DNA of 14,579 nucleotides, from the IMG/VR virus record IMGVR_UViG_2529293240_000014. The stretch is one strand, 5' to 3'. Position 1 is the stretch's first letter. Every line of letters begins with the position of its first letter. Source of the DNA: a virus (lineage: Duplodnaviria; Heunggongvirae; Uroviricota; Caudoviricetes). The translations under genes and the position numbers were made by a program. The notes under the pieces are model-generated. The model saw only the letters and a program-made list of their open reading frames with translations, had not been told where the DNA came from and ran no database searches. Shown here one piece after another: positions 1,107 through 14,256 of the stretch.

Positions 1107-1178
<72 letters not shown>

Positions 1179-1181
1179 ATA

Positions 1182-1257
<76 letters not shown>

Positions 1258-1259
1258 GC

Positions 1260-1336
1260 TGGCCCACCACCGAGAACTCGAACCTCGCACCGTCAACTTA
1301 GAAGGTTGATGCTCTATCCGGATGAGCTAGCGGTGG
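1260..1336 (-). tRNA. tRNA-Arg (anticodon UCU, reads AGA), phage argN/argO-type
   Basis: Reverse complement folds as a cloverleaf: acceptor CCACCGC/GTGGTGG (one G-U), D-arm GCTC/GAGC, anticodon stem TCAAC/GTTGA with loop CTTCTAA, T-loop TTCGAGT, encoded CCA. Confidence 0.75.
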
Positions 1337-1337
1337 T

Positions 1338-1414
1338 TGGTGGCCCTTGCTGGACTTGAACCAGCGACCTGGCGATTATGAGTCGCTCGCTCTGACCAAC
1401 TGAGCTAAAGGGCC
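1338..1414 (-). tRNA. tRNA with CAU anticodon, ileX/ileZ-like (tRNA-Ile2, lysidine type, reads AUA); Met cannot be excluded
   Basis: Reverse complement GGCCCTTTAGCTCAGTTGGTCAGAGCGAGCGACTCATAATCGCCAGGTCGCTGGTTCAAGTCCAGCAAGGGCCACCA. Perfect acceptor stem, loop CTCATAA, T-arm GCTGG-TTCAAGT-CCAGC; close to E. coli ileX as recalled. Confidence 0.8.
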
Positions 1415-7692: not shown

Positions 7693-8475
7693 TTACCCCC
7701 TGAAGCCTGGCGGGATCGCACTGTCCGGCAACGAGACGGTGTTAACCTGTCGGAGCAACGTCTCAGGCCGAACACCTTTCGGCGCGAACAGGCCCTGGTA
7801 TTCATTGGCGATGCTGTGTCGAATCACCTGCTCAGGTGTAAAACCCTGCTGACGGAATTTTTCCAGTTCCCGTATCGCCCCGTTAGCGCCCTGCTCCGTT
7901 CGAATCGGTTTTCGCAATGCCTGTCTGAACCGGACCCACTCATGCCAGAGTGTTTCCGGCAACCAATCGGGCAGCTCAATAGCCTCCGGCTCGAATTTTT
8001 TAGACGCTCGTTTTTGGCGAGGGGGATTTAGGGGGAGATCAGTATTTAGATCTTCCTCTTCCTCTGGTAACGCTTTTTGATCCGTTTGTGTAACGCTGGC
8101 AGCGTTACCTTTTCGTTTCAGTTCGCGTATTTTTGTTACTCGCTCGTTTGTAACCGCCCGTTTTTTAGAGCTTTTTCCGTTATGACGTTCAAAGTTAGGT
8201 AGAGAAAGCCCACCGTCATTTTCGACCAGCCATCCAACCTGAATTAACGCATCAGCAAAACCAGACATAAAAGTGATGCGATCTATTGCACTTTTTGTAA
8301 CGCCGCGAGCGTTACAATCTGCATTACCGTCTATCATTTGTTGATCCGCCCATGCCCAGAAGCGAATAACCTTCCCTAATGCGGCATCTGGATCAATATT
8401 CAGAATCTCAGCAAGCCTGAATATTTCCGGCTTATCCGGCGTAATAACCTCGAGCTTTATCCAGTTTGAAGCCAT
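7693..8475 (-). CDS. Phage replication initiation protein (YdaU-like, DUF1376; lambda O position), 260 aa
   Basis: ATG at 8475 preceded by AAGGTGA. Lies between the YdaT-like and DnaC-like genes; carries internal palindromic iteron-like repeats. Confidence 0.7.
   Translation of the reverse strand: MASNWIKLEVITPDKPEIFRLAEILNIDPDAALGKVIRFWAWADQQMIDGNADCNARGVTKSAIDRITFMSGFADALIQVGWLVENDGGLSLPNFERHNGKSSKKRAVTNERVTKIRELKRKGNAASVTQTDQKALPEEEEDLNTDLPLNPPRQKRASKKFEPEAIELPDWLPETLWHEWVRFRQALRKPIRTEQGANGAIRELEKFRQQGFTPEQVIRHSIANEYQGLFAPKGVRPETLLRQVNTVSLPDSAIPPGFRG
8089..8108. repeat. Palindromic iteron-like site TGTAACGC-N5-GCGTTAC, copy 1, inside the replication gene
   Basis: tgtaacgctggcagcgttac is a perfect 19-bp dyad. 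Flanked by half-sites (gtaacgc at 8067-8073, tgtaaccgc at 8149-8157) and an AT-rich stretch at 8110-8170. Confidence 0.5.
8296..8316. repeat. Palindromic iteron-like site TGTAACGC-N5-GCGTTACA, copy 2
   Basis: tgtaacgccgcgagcgttaca; 8-bp arms exact reverse complements. Confidence 0.5.
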
Positions 8476-8487
8476 TTGTTTTCACCT

Positions 8488-8508
8488 TGTAACGCTCGCA
8501 GCGTTACA
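8488..8508. repeat. Palindromic iteron-like site TGTAACGC-N5-GCGTTACA, copy 3, just upstream of the replication gene start
   Basis: tgtaacgctcgcagcgttaca, 13 bp upstream of the ATG at 8475 and overlapping its RBS region. Confidence 0.5.
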
Positions 8509-8552
8509 TTTAACTGATACCGAACAAAACAATCCGGCACGATTAATTTCAA

Positions 8553-8975
8553 TCAATGCACTACGACAGAATCGCCGGGCGACCCACCACCGCTGAAATG
8601 TGCTTTCCGGTAAACGGCCTGGACAGCATCATCATGCGCATCAATTGCCGTACTCAACGCTTCCTGCGCCGCCAGTAATGCACGGCGTTCCAGGGTATCG
8701 AAGATACAGAGTCGGTGACGCAGCTCACGCGGAAGAATTGCCAGAACCGCAGGGATCAGTTTCTGAATTTTTTCCCTTTGCGCTTTCGTTTCACCTTTCA
8801 ACCAACGGTGATAGATATTCTGCTGATTGTTCCAGTCCTTGCCTGGTACCAGAGACAATTCGCCGCCCCCCTGCCGCAGATATTCTTCAGTAATTGCGTT
8901 AGCGACCCACGCCTGCCCTTTTTCGGCTGCCAGGGCTAACAGCACTGATTCGATGTGCTCATGCCTGATTTTCAT
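8553..8975 (-). CDS. YdaT-like protein (Rac prophage family; lambda cII position), 140 aa
   Basis: ATG at 8975 preceded by AAGGTG. Translation MKIRHEHIESVLLALAAEKGQAWVANAITEEYLRQGGGELSLVPGKDWNNQQNIYHRW... matches my recollection of Rac YdaT. The 5' end overlaps the upstream cro-like gene by 17 nt. Confidence 0.6.
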   Translation of the reverse strand: MKIRHEHIESVLLALAAEKGQAWVANAITEEYLRQGGGELSLVPGKDWNNQQNIYHRWLKGETKAQREKIQKLIPAVLAILPRELRHRLCIFDTLERRALLAAQEALSTAIDAHDDAVQAVYRKAHFSGGGSPGDSVVVH

Positions 8976-9186
8976 GAATCACCTTCCCAGGTCGTTTTGC
9001 CTTACGATATTCGTCATAAACTTTGGGGTCGTACTGAAGTTCCCCGCCAGATGCCTCTTGCAGGCGCATCGCGCGACCTTCAGGAACCAGTTCCCCCCAT
9101 GCAGCAATGCTTGCCAGCCTAACTCCTGCGGCATTGGCAAGCTTTGTTTTGCTGCCAAAAAACGCTATAGCATCAATTTTCAACAT
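8959..9186 (-). CDS. Cro/YdaS-like small HTH regulator, 75 aa
   Basis: ATG at 9186 preceded by AAGGAG. HTH-like segment KTKLANAAGVRLASIAAWGE. Transcribed divergently from the repressor gene. Confidence 0.7.
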   Translation of the reverse strand: MLKIDAIAFFGSKTKLANAAGVRLASIAAWGELVPEGRAMRLQEASGGELQYDPKVYDEYRKAKRPGKVIHENQA

Positions 9187-9262: not shown

Positions 9263-9670
9263 ATGAAAAACGAAACCTTCGGTGCTCGCCTCTTACATAG
9301 GCGTAAAAAATTAAAACTGTCTCAGGCCGCATTAGGTAAGCTGGTCAAAGTGGCTCACGTAACAATTTCTCAATGGGAAAGAGATGAAACACAGCCGGCG
9401 GGGAAAAGATTATTCGCACTGAGCCAAGCGCTTCAGTGCTCACCGACTTGGCTTCTTTTTGGGGATGAAGATAAACAACCAGGCGAACCGATCCCGGATA
9501 ATCAGCCAGCCATTCTGACAGAAGATCAAAAAGAGTTACTTCAACTGTTCGACGCACTGCCTGAGTCAGAGCAAAAGGCCCTGTTGTCAGAGATGCGTGC
9601 TCGAGTTGAAAATTTCAACAAACTTTTTGAAGAACTACTCAAAGCTCGCAAAAGAAGCGCAAACAAATAA
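9263..9670 (+). CDS. CI/RacR-like prophage repressor (XRE-family HTH, no peptidase domain), 135 aa
   Basis: N-terminal HTH LKLSQAALGKLVKVAHVTISQWERDETQP. Divergent from the cro-like gene. No SD, so possibly a leaderless or weakly initiated message as for lambda cI from PRM. Confidence 0.8.
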   Translation: MKNETFGARLLHRRKKLKLSQAALGKLVKVAHVTISQWERDETQPAGKRLFALSQALQCSPTWLLFGDEDKQPGEPIPDNQPAILTEDQKELLQLFDALPESEQKALLSEMRARVENFNKLFEELLKARKRSANK

Positions 9671-10463: not shown

Positions 10464-10474
10464 TGGATTTGCCC

Positions 10475-11380
10475 CTATATTTCCAGACATCTGTTATCAC
10501 TTAACCCATTACAAGCCCGCTGCCGCAGATATTCCCGTGGCGAGCGATAACCCAGCGCACTATGCGGATGCCATTCGTTATAATACTCGAACGCCTCTGC
10601 AAGGTTCTTTGCTGCCGTTAACCCGTCTGGTTTGGGCATGATACTGATGTAGTCACGCTTTATCGTTTTCACGAAGCTCTCTGCTATTCCGTTACTCTCC
10701 GGACTCCGCACCGCCGTGTTCTTCGGTTCAAGTCCCAACATCCGGGCGAACTGGCGTGTTTCATTAGCCCGGTAGCATGAACCATTATCCGTCAGCCACT
10801 CCACTGGAGACGACGGAAGATCGTTGCCGAAGCGGCGTTCCACCGCTCCCAGCATGACGTCCTGTACTGTTTCACTGTTGAAGCCGCCGGTAGTCACCGC
10901 CCAGTGCAGTGCCTCACGATCACAGCAGTCCAGCGCGAACGTGACACGCAGTCTCTCTCCGTTATCACAGCAGAACTCGAACCCGTCAGAGCACCATCGC
11001 TGATTGCTTTCTTTCACGGCCACTCTGCCTGTATGTGCCCGTTTCGATGGCGGTACAGCAGGTTTTCGCTCAAGCAACAGCGCATTCTGGCGCATGATCC
11101 GGTAAACACGTTTGGCATTGATCGCAGGCATACCATCAAGTTCTGCCTGTCTGCGAAGCAGCGCCCATACCCGACGATAACCATACGTGGGCAGCTCTCC
11201 GATAACATGGTGTATACGGAGAAGCACATCCGTATCATCAGTGTGACGACTGCGGCGGCCATCCATCCAGTCATCGGTTCGTCTGAGAATGACGTGCAAC
11301 TGCGCACGCGACACCCGGAGACAACGGCTGACTAAGCTTACTCCCCATCCCCGGGCAATAAGGGCGCGTGCGCTATCCAC
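10475..11380 (-). CDS. insD: IS2 transposase InsD (OrfB), 301 aa
   Basis: Translation [59 protein letters not shown]... is IS2 InsD; overlaps insC as expected for frameshift-fused OrfAB. Confidence 0.92.
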
Positions 11381-11703
11381 TTTTTTGCCCGTCCATATTC
11401 AACGGCTTCTTTGAGGAGTTCATTTTCCATCGTTTTCTTGCCGAGCAGGCGCTGGAGTTCTTTAATCTGCTTCATGGCGGCAGCAAGTTCAGAGGCAGGA
11501 ACAACCTGTTCTCCGGCGGCCACAGCAGTAAGACTTCCTTCCTGGTATTGCTTACGCCAGAGAAATAACTGGCTGGCTGCTACACCATGTTGCCGGGCAA
11601 CGAGGGAGACCGTCATCCCCGGTTCAAAGCTCTGCTGAACAATTGCGATCTTTTCCTGTGTGGTACGCCGTCTGCGTTTCTCCGGCCCTAAGACATCAAT
11701 CAT
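11338..11703 (-). CDS. insC: IS2 InsC (OrfA, HTH transposase subunit), 121 aa
   Basis: Start at the [56 protein letters not shown]... Met (11703); the track's upstream extension lacks an RBS. Confidence 0.9.
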
Positions 11704-11794
11704 CTGTTCTCCAATGACTAGTCTAAAAACTAGTATTAAGACTATCACTTAAATAAGTGATACTGGTTGTCTGGAGATTCAGGGGGCCAGTCTA

Positions 11795-11836
11795 CTCAGC
11801 ATTATATAGTTCTACTCTGGCGAGATACGTTGGCAT
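11795..11836 (-). pseudogene. Unknown gene disrupted by IS2, 5' portion (start codon and first ~14 codons)
   Basis: ATG at 11836 preceded by AAGGAA; translation MPTYLARVELYNAE then the IS2 junction. Joins 10210..10463 in frame. Confidence 0.5.
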
Positions 11837-12354
11837 ATTCATTTCCTTACTGGTTGTGTGAGAACTTCAGTAAAGATACCACCAAAGCCCGGAGGTGGTG
11901 AAATAAAACCGGGCACAACACGAAGGCGCATTTCCGGTATCCATAAAGAGTCGGTCTTGTCTGTGAAATTTAAATGGTGGGAGTGCGCTTCCGGTTGTAA
12001 ATAACGACATTGCTGTGTGAAGTACCAGTTGGCGGCATCGGTTTAATTGCTGGCTGATGTCCGCCCTTTTTAAAGTGAATTTTGTGATGCGGTGAATGCG
12101 GCTATGCGCACGCGGCACAGTTAAAAGTCATGTTAGTCCTTATTGGTTTGGGTGGGAAAGCCAACTGTAATTGTTAACTGGTTAACGTCACCTGGAGGCA
12201 CCAGGCACCGCATCAACAAAGTTCACTTCGGTGATGAAAGGAAAGAGAAAATGTTGAATGTAGCTATTGAAAACCAGAACGGGTGGAATTATAGTGCACC
12301 TGCACCTCATAAAACGGGTGCCGGGATTGCTACCCCGACGATGACTACTGCGCA

Positions 12355-12378
12355 TAACCGCGCTCAGGCGGTTTTTTT
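12355..12378 (+). terminator. Terminator-like hairpin plus T-tract inside the Rha upstream extension (possible attenuator)
   Basis: AACCGC-gctcag-GCGGTT followed by TTTTT. Lies between the strong upstream RBS/ATG (12251) and the Rha-domain start (12545). Confidence 0.3.
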
Positions 12379-12544
12379 ATGCGTCAAGCACAGCCACATT
12401 CAGATTATGGTGGGGCGTGCAGGGCAGCCGCAAGGCTGGCCGGTTTCGGTAGTCACCGGTTGTAGCAACCCTGTGCGTCTCACCACCCATGAGATTGCTA
12501 CCTCTGGTGGTGAGTTATTTAAACTGACTATCGAGGCTGCCATC

Positions 12545-13099
12545 ATGGCTACTATCCTTACCCTTTCTCACCCTGACGTAACCATCGAAAATGGTCGCGC
12601 TGTCACTACGTCTGTTGCGGTTGCGGAGTTCTTCCGGAAAATGCACAAAAACGTTATTCAGAAGATCGAAACTCTCGAATGCTCGCCGGAGTTTAACCGG
12701 CTTAATTTTAAGCCCGTCACCTATACCGACGCCAAAGGCGAAAAACGCCCAATGTACCAAATCACCAAAAACGGCTTCGTTTTCCTGGTGATGGGCTTCA
12801 CTGGCAAAAAAGCCGCCGCATTCAAGGAAGCCTACATTGCTGAGTTCGACCGCATGGAGGCCGAACTGCGCCAGAATAACACCCCACCTGCTGACAAGAT
12901 GATTCCGGGTGATGGTCGCACTCTGGTTGTTCACTTCGACAAATTCGGCAATGTCGAATTCACCGAAACCGTTCCTGATGGCGCACTGGTCTGTACCCTG
13001 GAGACTTTCCGGTTTTATCTGGAAAAACAGGGATGGACTCTTGTTAACCGGGGCGCAATTAAAAATATGACTGTGGAACAATTACTTTCTTTAAAATAA
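12545..13099 (+). CDS. Rha-family phage regulatory protein; start ambiguous (12545, or 12251 with a 98-aa N-terminal extension)
   Basis: Rha-domain motifs AVTTSVAVAEFFRKMHKNVIQKIETL...KRPMYQITKNGFVFLVMGFTGKKAAAFKEAYIAEFDRME. ATG at 12545 preceded by GAGG; the in-frame ATG at 12251 has a stronger AAGGAAAGAG site. Confidence 0.7.
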   Translation: MATILTLSHPDVTIENGRAVTTSVAVAEFFRKMHKNVIQKIETLECSPEFNRLNFKPVTYTDAKGEKRPMYQITKNGFVFLVMGFTGKKAAAFKEAYIAEFDRMEAELRQNNTPPADKMIPGDGRTLVVHFDKFGNVEFTETVPDGALVCTLETFRFYLEKQGWTLVNRGAIKNMTVEQLLSLK

Positions 13100-13115: not shown

Positions 13116-13397
13116 ATGAACCCTATGCTTGATTATTGTTTTACCTCTGCACCTCAGCAGACCATAACACACACCGGAATCAAAAATTTGTTATGGATAA
13201 TCAAAAAAACCCTCCAGCAGAAAGGTGATCCCGATTTAATTCCCTGTGCTTATGGCCTGTGTGACAGACAAGTAAGCCCTGATAAGGCTTACACTGCTGA
13301 ACTTATTTACATGCACGGAACCATGATGAGGAAAAAGAAACGCAAATATTGTAGTGAAATCTGCGCCGAAAAAGACCAGATGGCACACGAACTTTAA
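13116..13397 (+). CDS. Hypothetical protein, 93 aa, Cys-rich, unknown function
   Basis: ATG at 13116 preceded by GGAG. Translation contains CAYGLCDRQ and YCSEICAEK pairs, possibly metal-binding. No family recognised. Confidence 0.5.
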   Translation: MNPMLDYCFTSAPQQTITHTGIKNLLWIIKKTLQQKGDPDLIPCAYGLCDRQVSPDKAYTAELIYMHGTMMRKKKRKYCSEICAEKDQMAHEL

Positions 13398-13503
13398 TTA
13401 ACTGACTATTCGAAACTGAATTTATGCCAGCAATGGCAGGGATTCGCTCAACCTTAATTAAGGAGAAAAACATGAACACCAATTATGAGGTAATGACTCC
13501 AAC

Positions 13504-14007
13504 TTACTGATAGTGTTTTATGTTCAGATAATGCCCGATGACCTTGTCATGCAGCTCCACCGATTTTGAGAACGACAGTGACTTCCGTCCCAGCCTTGCC
13601 AGATGTTGTCTCAGATTCAGATTATGTCGCTCAATGCGCTGAGTGTAACGCTTGCTGATAACGTGCAGCTTTCCCTTCAGGCGTGATTCATACAGCGGCC
13701 AGCCATCCGTCATCCATACCACGACCTCAAAGGCCGACAGCAGGCTCAGAAGACGCTCCAGTGTGGCCAGAGTGCGTTCACCGAAGACGTGCGCCACAAC
13801 CGTCCTCCGTATCCTGTCATACGCGTAAAACAGCCAGCGCTGACGTGATTTAGCACCGACGTAGCCCCAATGTTCGTCCATTTCAGCGCAGACAATCACA
13901 TCACTGCCCGGTTGTATGCGCGAGGTTACCGACTGCGGCCTGAGTTTTTTAAGTGACGTAAAACCGTGTTGAGGCCAACGCCCATAATGCGTGCACTGGC
14001 GCGACAT
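13504..14007 (-). CDS. insB: IS1 InsB reading frame (normally expressed as the InsAB' frameshift fusion)
   Basis: ORF translation ...[54 protein letters not shown]... is IS1 InsB. Confidence 0.9.
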
Positions 14008-14201
14008 CCGACGCCATTCATGGCCATATCAATGATTTTCTGGTGCGTACCGGGCTGAGAGGCGGTGTAAGTGAACTGTAGTTGCCATGTTTTACGGCAA
14101 TGAGAGCAGAGATAGCGCTGATGTCCGGCAGTGCTTTTGCCGTTACGCACCACGCCTTCAGTAGCGGAGCAGGAAGGACATCTGATGGAAATGGAAGCCA
14201 C
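13926..14201 (-). CDS. insA: IS1 InsA, 91 aa (GTG start)
   Basis: Translation (V/M)[42 protein letters not shown]... with GTG start 56 nt from the IS end. Confidence 0.92.
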
Positions 14202-14256
14202 GCAAGCACCTTAAAATCACCATCATACACTAAATCAGTAAGTTGGCAGCATTACC

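Follow-up and report, generated by a model that had tools for sequence, protein, structure and literature searches.

Layout of the region upstream of Rha

The window analysed here, the whole stretch of 14,579 nucleotides of viral DNA (IMG/VR record IMGVR_UViG_2529293240_000014), carries on its plus strand a frame that is free of stop codons from 12143 to 13099, as given in the ORF list of the window. Within this frame, nested protein starts, a predicted promoter and matches to RNA families precede the body of a gene of the Rha family, and further RNA and regulatory genes lie upstream. The features are as follows.

12251–13099, plus strand: long nested open reading frame of 282 codons and a stop, named 'Rha family phage regulatory protein' in RefSeq
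12545–13099, plus strand: short form (184 aa) of the Rha-family (Bro-network) regulatory protein; Pfam PF09669, NCBIfam TIGR02681
12267–12295, plus strand: predicted sigma-70-like promoter for IsrK (TTGAAA, 17 nt, TATAGT) from the promoter scan
12302–12378, plus strand: IsrK-like sRNA, homologue of the P4 seqA leader, with two 5′ hairpins; Rfam RF01394
12323–12333 and 12342–12348: target-mimic sites a1 and b1, respectively, in IsrK
12403–12490, plus strand: C4/CI-type antisense RNA with the b′ loop at 12444–12455 and the a′ segment at 12462–12471; Rfam RF01695
12407–12409, plus strand: ATG four bases into C4, in the Rha frame and 46 stop-free codons ahead of the Rha start
12491–12536, plus strand: downstream antisense target sites a2 (12491–12501) and b2 (12525–12536), complementary to a′ and b′
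12016–12071, plus strand: diverged DicF-family sRNA, a sub-threshold match to Rfam RF00039, with a terminator hairpin at about 12031–12065 and T5
8959–9186 and 9263–9670: DicC and DicA, respectively

The Pfam model PF09669 (Phage_pRha; E = 7.6e-31, 107 bits against a cut-off of 29.9) begins at residue 119 of the long frame and the NCBIfam model TIGR02681 (phage_pRha; 115.1 bits against 45.95) at residue 108, and GAGG at 12533–12536 stands just 5′ of the ATG at 12545–12547. The earlier note on this DNA had placed the start of the Rha domain at about 12545 with a GAGG site of its own, which is borne out. It was likewise right that the frame stays open back to an ATG at 12251 with a Shine-Dalgarno sequence: AAGGA (12238–12242) lies just 5′ of this codon (12251–12253), and exactly 98 codons in the same frame separate it from the Rha ATG. 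In phage phi191 it is the short form of Rha that is annotated as CDS, and the 282-aa form is the one annotated by PGAP in genomes that are 83–100% identical. A contig search with the Rha protein returned 8 loci only.

The promoter at 12267–12295 matches 10 of 12 consensus positions in the promoter scan. In 13 divergent loci, P4 among them, the −35 and −10 hexamers keep a constant spacing to the 5′ end of isrK. The match to Rfam isrK (RF01394) scores 61.5 bits, above the curated cut-off of 50 bits, and covers positions 1–77 of the 77-position model at 12302–12378. Its 3′ end coincides with the terminator found by the terminator scan, a stem at 12356–12373 and a T7 run at 12372–12378. The hairpin and T-run described earlier inside the extension are present, and they very probably constitute an intrinsic terminator within the open frame. 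The following RNA matches Rfam C4 (RF01695) with 75.7 bits over the full model (curated cut-off 45 bits) and folds with a minimum free energy of −48.3 kcal/mol (z = −5.1). The tandem of isrK and C4 is kept in a constant 101-nt register in 11 related loci; in P4 the register is 185 nt. The ATG four bases into C4 is found in at least 11 of the 13 loci examined, and no obvious Shine-Dalgarno sequence was seen at ATG 12407 itself. There are no stop codons between 12407 and 12545, both starts being in one frame, and 12407 corresponds to position +106 from the 5′ end of the Rfam isrK match, or to +107 if transcription starts at 12301. The two RNAs, the internal promoter and the antisense sites on the Rha ribosome-binding site had been missed in the earlier note.

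A second hairpin with a T-run had been described upstream of the extension and taken for a terminator without a gene. The structure is present at about 12031–12071, where the terminator scan reports a stem at 12034–12061 followed by CGCCCTTTTT, including T5; the absence of a gene is not borne out, as a DicF-family sRNA ends there. The match to Rfam DicF (RF00039) spans the full model (1–52) with 28.6 bits and E = 0.001, under the cut-off of 48, and the RNA folds with −20.3 kcal/mol (z = −2.9). Moreover, in a related locus (L002) a canonical DicF of 76.7 bits precedes isrK at the same distance (235 nt), and alignment of the two reveals that the 3′ stem ends and the T-run are identical and that the 60-nt flank is conserved. 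DicA and DicC control the operon in which the RNA lies, as expected of a DicF. Judged from these sequence features, the upstream hairpin is the predicted terminator of a diverged DicF sRNA. Since each of the two hairpins forms the 3′ end of an RNA-family match, both represent more than chance structures. An IS2 insertion at 10464–11794 interrupts the upstream operon, and the promoter that would feed the long ORF may therefore be disconnected in this strain.

Antisense sites co-varying as matched sets

The a′ and b′ elements of C4 are complementary both to a1 and b1 within IsrK and to a2 and b2 downstream, where b2 overlaps the GAGG Shine-Dalgarno sequence (12533–12536) of the Rha start. Among the relatives, in which we distinguish 13 specificity types of b′ and 7 of a′, the pairs a1/b1, a′/b′ and a2/b2 co-vary as matched sets. 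Correspondingly, across 12–16 specificity types cognate duplexes are about 6–9 kcal/mol more stable than non-cognate ones. For the cognate and non-cognate combinations, respectively, the mean duplex energies are −13.6 and −6.6 kcal/mol for b′–b1, −15.1 and −6.4 kcal/mol for b′–b2, −16.8 and −10.0 kcal/mol for a′–a1, and −13.0 and −7.2 kcal/mol for a′–a2. In the crossed controls, b′–a1 and a′–b2, cognate and non-cognate duplex energies did not differ.

The folds of the RNAs themselves are conserved by covariation as well. Compensatory changes occur in 14 of the 28 pairs of helices 4–6, which are the three C4 helices. For isrK and C4 together, the structure comprises 44 base pairs, with 95.5% of the cells paired and double changes in 20 pairs; when the partners were slid by 1–3 columns as a control, 37–47% were paired and double changes were confined to 3–6 pairs. 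An assignment of the a1/b1 sites to the Rfam family c4-a1b1 (RF03163) was considered and rejected, as the score of 18.9 bits falls short of the cut-off (46.7).

Stop avoidance and amino-acid constraint in the extension

Of 40 distinct extension sequences, 35 retain an open Rha frame; 4–13 stops occur in each of the other two frames. None of the 225 distinct variant triplets in the Rha frame is a stop codon, compared with 24 of 442 off-frame (Fisher p = 4e-5), and stop avoidance is significant separately in each half of the extension (p = 0.003 and 0.015). In addition, most extensions are 291, 294 or 297 nt long and thus differ by multiples of three, and in Citrobacter (L086) an ATG at codon −98/−99 with an AAGG-type Shine-Dalgarno sequence is kept despite diverged flanks. 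The ORFs that contain the RNA pair in Stx phages and ST64B are 340–385 aa long, with the pair about 120 codons inside, and they overlap or closely adjoin the stop of an upstream gene. On these patterns of variation, we take the extension frame to be selectively kept open.

At the same time, the amino acids that the extension would encode appear nearly unconstrained. The column entropy at the three codon positions is 0.41/0.47/0.49 in the extension versus 0.32/0.27/0.70 in the N-terminal domain of Rha. Whereas the neighbouring Rha body has strong codon periodicity and a dN/dS of 0.11–0.47, the extension is devoid of codon periodicity and of an excess of variation at third positions, and its dN/dS is 0.31–0.92. 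This latter ratio is somewhat lower than in the off-frame controls (about 0.6 versus about 0.95), and a protein-level role of the extension, weak at most, may for this reason exist.

The lack of codon periodicity would be expected if the extension consisted solely of a promoter and non-coding RNA, with the frame left open as a by-product of chance and of strong constraints on the RNA sequence and with no translation upstream of ATG 12545. In line with such a reading, much of the region is nearly invariant, and the openness is therefore partly inherited from one ancestor. Moreover, the frame is broken in five of the 40 distinct relatives, two of which have T8 in place of T7. It is not extended upstream of isrK in the distant loci L094, L097, L098 and L089, which implies that a continuity like that of the P4 eta ORF is dispensable, and the small ORF upstream of anrP in Gifsy-1 is a separate one. 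However, the avoidance of stops in both halves of the extension, the lengths varying in threes, the start and Shine-Dalgarno sequence retained in Citrobacter and the position of the RNA pair far inside the long ORFs of Stx phages and ST64B all argue against a frame that is never translated, as does P4, for which PMC10111431 reports translation of eta to be functional. We consider it improbable that the extension is exclusively non-coding.

The opposite reading holds that the extension is a genuine folded N-terminal 'Ash' domain fused to Rha and that the RNA-family matches are incidental. Residues 14–108 match Pfam Phage_ASH (PF10554) with 75.8 bits against a gathering cut-off of 26, relatives are publicly named 'ash family protein', and PGAP annotates the 282-aa form; the open frame with its avoided stops and mostly in-frame indels and the in-frame dN/dS slightly below the off-frame value would fit a protein domain too. 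Thus, the fused N-terminal domain of unknown function that had been offered as an option does have a match, Pfam Ash, though one without constraint at the amino-acid level. The earlier note would have been contradicted by homologues in which the extension is a conserved structured domain of full-length Rha proteins: such a domain is nominally there (Ash), but what is conserved is the RNA. The hypervariable patches of the putative domain are the RNA pairing sites, which change as complementary RNA sets, its conserved 'residues' sit on covarying RNA helices, and the entropy and dN/dS values given above lack the third-position excess of variation seen in the Rha body, so that purifying selection of the kind expected of a foldable protein domain was not found.

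PF10554 also matches the obsolete P4 ORF 'cI gene product (AA 1-137)' exactly over the CI RNA. That P4 CI acts as an RNA has been established experimentally. The account of CI in PMC10111431 agrees with this. Furthermore, the leader formed by residues 1–98 is joined to unrelated downstream proteins, namely Rha, P4 Kil and others. When these residues were searched alone, as had been proposed, 49 proteins were obtained, mostly fragments named 'ash family' or 'Rha', which added little beyond the Pfam match. A sequence search of the PDB with the long ORF revealed no relative, the only hit being a chance match to leghemoglobin (E = 0.11). AlphaFold2 with a 28-row alignment gave a poor model as a whole (mean pLDDT 38), and the nearly complete absence of secondary structure in residues 1–110, where block means of pLDDT are 27–39, is accordingly weak evidence. 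The Pfam Ash match is the translation of the isrK and C4 RNA locus, and a folded Ash domain is, in our judgement, very unlikely. As for the origin of the family name, P4 epsilon, for which PF10554 is used in PMC8628076, was rejected as the source of the Ash family; epsilon matches PF25738.

Proposed control of Rha and relation to known systems

Taken together, these results indicate that 12251–12545 is very probably an immunity-type RNA control cassette placed before a Rha (Bro-network, antirepressor-like) gene and homologous to those of P4, P1 and Gifsy-1. By analogy with these systems, most transcripts from the internal promoter would stop at the IsrK terminator, and those reading through would be processed to free C4 RNA. 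Free C4 could then pair with a2 and b2, which would block translation of Rha and probably provoke termination downstream; an involvement of Rho in termination would be expected by homology. Free IsrK, through its decoys a1 and b1, might titrate C4 or remodel the leader and thereby switch on translation of Rha, as in Gifsy-1. Ribosomes on the long ORF, in turn, would open up both the IsrK terminator and the folded C4 before continuing into Rha, such that translation of the long ORF would render Rha expression insensitive to the RNA repressor, as for P4 eta. Because ATG 12251 lies 5′ of the internal promoter, it would be translatable only on transcripts of the upstream, DicA-controlled early operon, and the transit of ribosomes through the cassette would keep the ORF open without conservation of amino acids.

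Part of the former suggestion of a leader peptide with attenuator is preserved in this cassette, as translation through the terminator may counteract termination in analogy to P4 eta; the frame, however, never closes. A classical attenuator, with a short ORF, alternative hairpins and no trans-acting RNA, would account for a terminator inside a translated-looking leader with a good Shine-Dalgarno sequence, but it is hardly tenable given that the ORF does not end by the terminator and runs 282 codons into Rha, that a promoter separates the ATG from the terminator, that the latter is part of a free-standing sRNA family and that the three-way covariation is that of antisense sites of the intermolecular type.

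The RNA cassette leaves some room for a product of the long frame. We regard it as rather unlikely that transcripts from the upstream early promoter yield a genuine protein of 282 aa, an Ash-Rha isoform that differs in its properties from the 184-aa form. If so, the same 294 nt would encode part of a protein and at the same time serve as promoter and as two regulatory RNAs, and the diversification of the RNA specificity patches, with at least 13 b types, would extend to the N-terminus of the protein.

Of 5426 complete E. coli genomes, 949 show a megablast match. The stretch before Rha is annotated solely as protein in hundreds of E. coli and Shigella genomes, either as the long form of 'Rha family' or as 'ash family protein', and the IsrK-like and C4-like RNAs are left unannotated, even though they most probably decide whether the antirepressor-like Rha is made. 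That Pfam Ash coincides with an RNA cassette affects the reading of 'Ash domain' proteins in surveys of Stx phages and satellites. The many co-varying specificity types, moreover, suggest a heteroimmunity code among co-resident prophages.

One of the closest known parallels is the immunity region of the phage-plasmid P4, which comprises PLE, the seqA leader, the CI RNA (seqB) and seqC together with the nested genes eta and kil. As in P4, matches to Rfam isrK and C4 stand in tandem behind a promoter of constitutive type (PLE in P4), and the antisense loop has complementary sites on both sides, one upstream and one downstream. The P4 eta ORF, whose starts give 197–199 aa, begins 5′ of the promoter and spans both RNAs; likewise, ATG 12251 lies 5′ of the promoter at 12267–12295, and the frame remains open into the first downstream gene, to 13099. 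The start region of that gene is shared as well, GAGGCTGCCATCATGGCTAC at the Rha start being common to P4 kil and all related loci. The kil and Rha starts are homologous, reading TCGAGGCTGCCATCATGGCTACTATCC in the window and CAGGAGGCTGCCATCATGGCTACAACC in P4 (BLAST match at P4 8334–8377). The biology of P4 eta, kil, CI and seqA is summarised in PMC10111431, as is the detection of seqA and CI with the Rfam models isrK and C4. Unlike in P4, a Rha-family regulator of 184 aa is encoded downstream instead of the 65-aa Kil, the spacing of isrK and C4 is 101 nt instead of 185 nt, and the long ORF, which starts only 17 codons before the 5′ end of IsrK, has no translational coupling to an upstream gene. 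The host element differs too, being a lambdoid prophage of the DicA/DicC (Qin/Rac-like) kind and not a satellite.

The promoter at 12267–12295 is the counterpart not only of P4 PLE but also of PisrK of Gifsy-1, where the mechanism of isrK-orf45-anrP has been described (Hershko-Shalev et al. 2016, PMC4825925). The order of parts is shared: an IsrK sRNA with a terminator, leaky in Gifsy-1 and predicted to be so here, precedes the C4 region, which in Gifsy-1 gives a processed RNA (STnc1160), and an antirepressor-like gene lies downstream, its leader being complementary to IsrK. In Gifsy-1, orf45 has its first AUG at +107 of IsrK (PMC4825925), and ATG 12407, at about +107, is its equivalent. An equivalence of ATG 12407 with the P4 kil start was considered and rejected by alignment, which pairs kil with the Rha start (12545); the counterpart of 12407 is orf45. 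In Gifsy-1, the orf45 stop overlaps the anrP start (AUGA), which provides for translational coupling. In contrast, the AUG at 12407 is in the Rha frame with no stop between, and the frame is also open upstream through IsrK and its promoter.

In P1 and P7, differing specificity types underlie heteroimmunity. Their immI RNA belongs to Rfam C4, and the sites a1 b1, a′ b′ and a2 b2 control icd-ant; antisense regulation of P1 ant is cited in PMC7313666. The cassette of the window shares with immI a pair of antisense elements whose targets each occur once upstream and once downstream, a downstream copy that covers the ribosome-binding site, and specificity types that differ between relatives. It departs from P1 in that there is no separate icd ORF, b2 adjoining the Shine-Dalgarno sequence of Rha itself, and in that the a1/b1 copies reside within a terminated sRNA, IsrK, where RF03163 reaches only 18.9 bits. 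The cassette is thus an instance of the paradigms of P4, P1 and Gifsy-1 and entails no new mechanism.

Extension of the Rha frame and the RNAs within it

An ORF scan of the window indicated that the plus-strand frame containing Rha is open from 12143 to a stop at 13099. Its first ATG, at 12251, is preceded by AAGGA (12238-12242) and lies exactly 98 codons (294 nt) before ATG 12545, which has GAGG (12533-12536) ahead of it and is the annotated start in phage phi191. Within this long ORF the Rha domain begins at residue 119 (Pfam Phage_pRha) or 108 (NCBIfam phage_pRha). A terminator scan placed a hairpin at 12356-12373 with a T7 run at 12372-12378 inside the extension, and a second hairpin at 12034-12061, followed by CGCCCTTTTT, upstream of it. 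The open extension, its Shine-Dalgarno sites and both hairpins were therefore found where the earlier note had placed them. An Rfam search of the window at curated thresholds revealed two full-length non-coding RNA families within the 294 nt, and a promoter scan added a third element:

12267-12295, plus strand: sigma-70-like promoter (TTGAAA, 17 nt, TATAGT), directly 5′ of isrK
12302-12378, plus strand: isrK (RF01394), 61.5 bits, cut-off 50
12403-12490, plus strand: C4 antisense RNA (RF01695), 75.7 bits, cut-off 45

The internal terminator-like hairpin is the last hairpin and U-tail of the isrK match. The C4 fold energy is -48.3 kcal/mol (z=-5.1). Eleven related loci, including Stx phages, ST64B, a Klebsiella phage, a Yersinia phage, and Citrobacter and Arsenophonus genomes, carry the tandem in an unvarying 101-nt register, and phage P4 carries it at a wider spacing (185 nt). 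In 13 of 13 loci, including the expected place of P4 PLE, the spacing between the -35/-10 hexamers and the isrK 5′-end is constant. In an alignment of 21 sequences, 44 base pairs were proposed; 95.5% of their cells were paired and 20 pairs had compensatory double changes, as compared to 37-47% and 3-6 pairs when partners were shifted by 1-3 columns. By megablast, a match was present in 949 genomes out of 5426 complete E. coli genomes.

Another RNA, sRNA-Xcc1 (RF02221, 62-80 bits), was observed 5′ of the Rha or antirepressor gene in the related loci L030 (1367-1456), L094 (2223-2306) and L089 (1059-1145). It stands alongside isrK-C4 in L094 and L089 and replaces it in L030, and probably in L040. 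This distribution suggests that RNA leader cassettes are interchangeable for Bro-network genes.

Protein family or translated RNA genes

At first, a protein-coding extension seemed to contradict the RNA picture, as the 282-aa long form is present in RefSeq as 'Rha family phage regulatory protein' (genomes 83-100% identical) and its residues 14-108 match the Pfam 'Ash protein family' (PF10554, 75.8 bits). However, the Ash model likewise matches the obsolete P4 'cI gene product (AA 1-137)' ORF (8168-8584 of NC_001609), exactly over the Rfam C4 match that represents the P4 CI RNA. The equation of Ash with P4 epsilon, made in one survey, is rejected here, as epsilon (7888-8175) matches a different family, PF25738. 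Because PF10554 matches the cI ORF over the CI RNA and not epsilon, the Ash profile is a translation of isrK and C4 DNA, and the P4-satellite survey employing PF10554 as its epsilon profile (PMC8628076) was probably detecting the CI/seqA RNA region. That an annotated 'protein family' coincides with two RNA genes is a useful by-product of this analysis.

Moreover, among relatives the three codon positions of the extension vary about equally (entropy 0.41/0.47/0.49), whereas the Rha body shows the usual third-position excess (N-terminal domain 0.32/0.27/0.70; C-terminal part 0.29/0.15/0.65). For Rha, dN/dS was 0.11-0.47; the extension gave 0.31-0.92 in the Rha frame and 0.6-1.45 when its DNA was read in the two other frames. 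The leader is also fused to various downstream proteins in various elements, including P4 Kil. A PDB search with the long ORF returned nothing relevant, and the AlphaFold2 model was poor overall (mean pLDDT 38), with almost no secondary structure predicted in residues 1-110.

Nevertheless, the frame is kept open. Most extensions measure 291, 294 or 297 nt, an ATG is found repeatedly at -98/-99 and at -46/-47, and 35 of 40 distinct extension sequences lack stops in the Rha frame, while the other frames contain 4-13 each. With each distinct variant triplet counted once, stops made up 0/225 in the Rha frame versus 24/442 in the others (Fisher p=4e-5), and their avoidance is significant both upstream (p=0.003) and downstream (p=0.015) of 12407. 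Therefore, selection appears to act on translatability and not on the peptide sequence. The interpretation given in the earlier note was partly right.

The frame is broken in a minority of relatives, two of them (L044 and L051) with T8 in place of T7 in the IsrK terminator tail; in loci L094, L097, L098 and L089 it stops short of the region upstream of isrK. T8 puts the long ORF out of frame upstream of the tail, and the T-run may therefore act as a natural switch turning the eta-like ORF on or off. A 28-codon ORF in another frame (12379-12465, plus strand) runs from an ATG right after the IsrK T7 (TTTTTTTATGCGT, shared by most relatives) into C4, where it closes.

The upstream operon and other features of the window

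The upstream hairpin had been noted as a terminator with no obvious gene to terminate. A sub-threshold Rfam match to DicF covers 12016-12066 at full model length (28.6 bits versus 48, E=0.001). In the related locus L002, 235 nt separate a canonical DicF (76.7 bits) from the isrK downstream of it, the equivalent distance in the window being 236 nt; in the alignment of the two loci, the 3′ stem ends, T-run and downstream flank are identical and the 5′ seed and loop differ. Given the full-length match, the position in L002 and the aligned 3′-end, the hairpin appears to end a diverged sRNA of the DicF family that belongs to a DicA/DicC-controlled operon; PMC10448788 describes the biology of this operon. 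The operon is interrupted by an insertion:

8959-9186: DicC, gene of the upstream operon
9263-9670: DicA, gene of the upstream operon
10464-11794, minus strand: complete IS2, interrupting the early operon under DicA control, 5′ of the DicF-like RNA
10475-11380, minus strand: IS2 TnpB ORF
11338-11748, minus strand: IS2 TnpA ORF

In the near-identical strain FDAARGOS_943, which lacks IS2, homology to the window starts at 11795. Since IS2 splits the operon, the promoter that would drive the long ORF may be cut off from it in this strain.

Between the DicF-like RNA and ATG 12251, a sub-threshold Rfam STnc100 match was observed (12078-12220, plus strand; 29.9 bits versus 47, E=3e-4). The stretch 12029-12225, comprising the DicF 3′ part and the STnc100-like region, has unannotated matches of ~80% identity in other E. 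coli genomes. An IS1 element (~13489-14256, minus strand), located downstream of the YdaE-like gene (13116-13397), begins immediately behind codon 6 of an ORF that opens at ATG 13472, and neighbor annotation in other genomes suggests this to be the place of a kilR-like gene. A full-length sok antitoxin RNA (RF01794, 5022-5197, minus strand, 117 bits) implies a putative hok/sok-type toxin-antitoxin locus in the prophage. Four tRNA genes are clustered at 1108-1414 (minus strand); such clusters are a common feature of the region 3′ of Q in lambdoid or Stx-type prophages.

Antisense sites and comparison with P4, P1 and Gifsy-1

A comparison of 60 distinct related loci, with Rha proteins 69-100% identical, showed the variable positions to be concentrated in the following short patches:

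12323-12333, plus strand: a1, in IsrK
12342-12348, plus strand: b1, in IsrK
12444-12455, plus strand: b′ loop, in C4
12462-12471, plus strand: a′, in C4
12491-12501, plus strand: a2, downstream of C4
12525-12536, plus strand: b2, downstream of C4, running into the GAGG of the 12545 start

Sites a1 and a2, like b1 and b2, are near-identical copies, and a′ and b′ are their complements. All copies change jointly per variant: the b′ types CGGTAGTCA, CGTTAGTGA and CTCTAGTGA each occur with their own b1 and b2. Mean duplex energies for cognate versus non-cognate pairs (kcal/mol) were -13.6 versus -6.6 for b′-b1, -15.1 versus -6.4 for b′-b2, -16.8 versus -10.0 for a′-a1 and -13.0 versus -7.2 for a′-a2, whereas no difference was seen when b′ was paired with a1, or a′ with b2, as crossed controls. 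This clear three-way covariation defines many specificity types, a further useful by-product. This arrangement of sites is also that of the P1/P7 c4 system (a1 b1, a′ b′, a2 b2) and of P4 immunity (seqA, seqB in CI, and seqC). We conclude that the C4-like RNA would repress translation of Rha through its pairing with a2/b2, and that decoy copies of these target sites are present in IsrK. In Gifsy-1, IsrK activates in trans, via the leader, translation of the downstream antirepressor-like gene anrP (PMC4825925).

According to PMC10111431, citing Forti et al. 1999, read-through allows P4 Kil to be translated, translation of full-length Eta takes place only from an upstream promoter, and Eta translation prevents termination. 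In our own reading of the P4 sequence, the eta ORF, with start codons yielding 197-199 aa, begins 5′ of the promoter equivalent to PLE and covers both the isrK-like leader and CI; the ST64B record labels its homologue 'similar to P4 ORF199'. Likewise, in Stx2a_1447, Stx1_14040 and ST64B the isrK-C4 pair lies ~120 codons inside antirepressor ORFs of 340-385 aa, which overlap the stop of the preceding gene in Stx2a_1447 and ST64B and start 3 nt after it in Stx1_14040, a layout resembling P4 eta. Homology also links the start of P4 kil, CAGGAGGCTGCCATCATGGCTACAACC, to the Rha start of the window, TCGAGGCTGCCATCATGGCTACTATCC.

Mapped by homology, ATG 12251 would be an eta-type start, 12267-12295 the counterpart of PLE/PisrK, ATG 12407 that of the Gifsy-1 orf45 start, and ATG 12545 a kil-type, RNA-controlled Rha start. 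ATG 12407 lies four bases into C4 and is present in at least 11 of 13 loci; in contrast to Gifsy-1 orf45, which ends in AUGA, it is in frame with Rha. We infer all expression steps at the window locus from these parallels. Taken together, the element is an RNA cassette of the already-known P4 CI, P1 c4 and Gifsy-1 IsrK type, which probably controls a Bro-network gene and carries an eta-like nested ORF.
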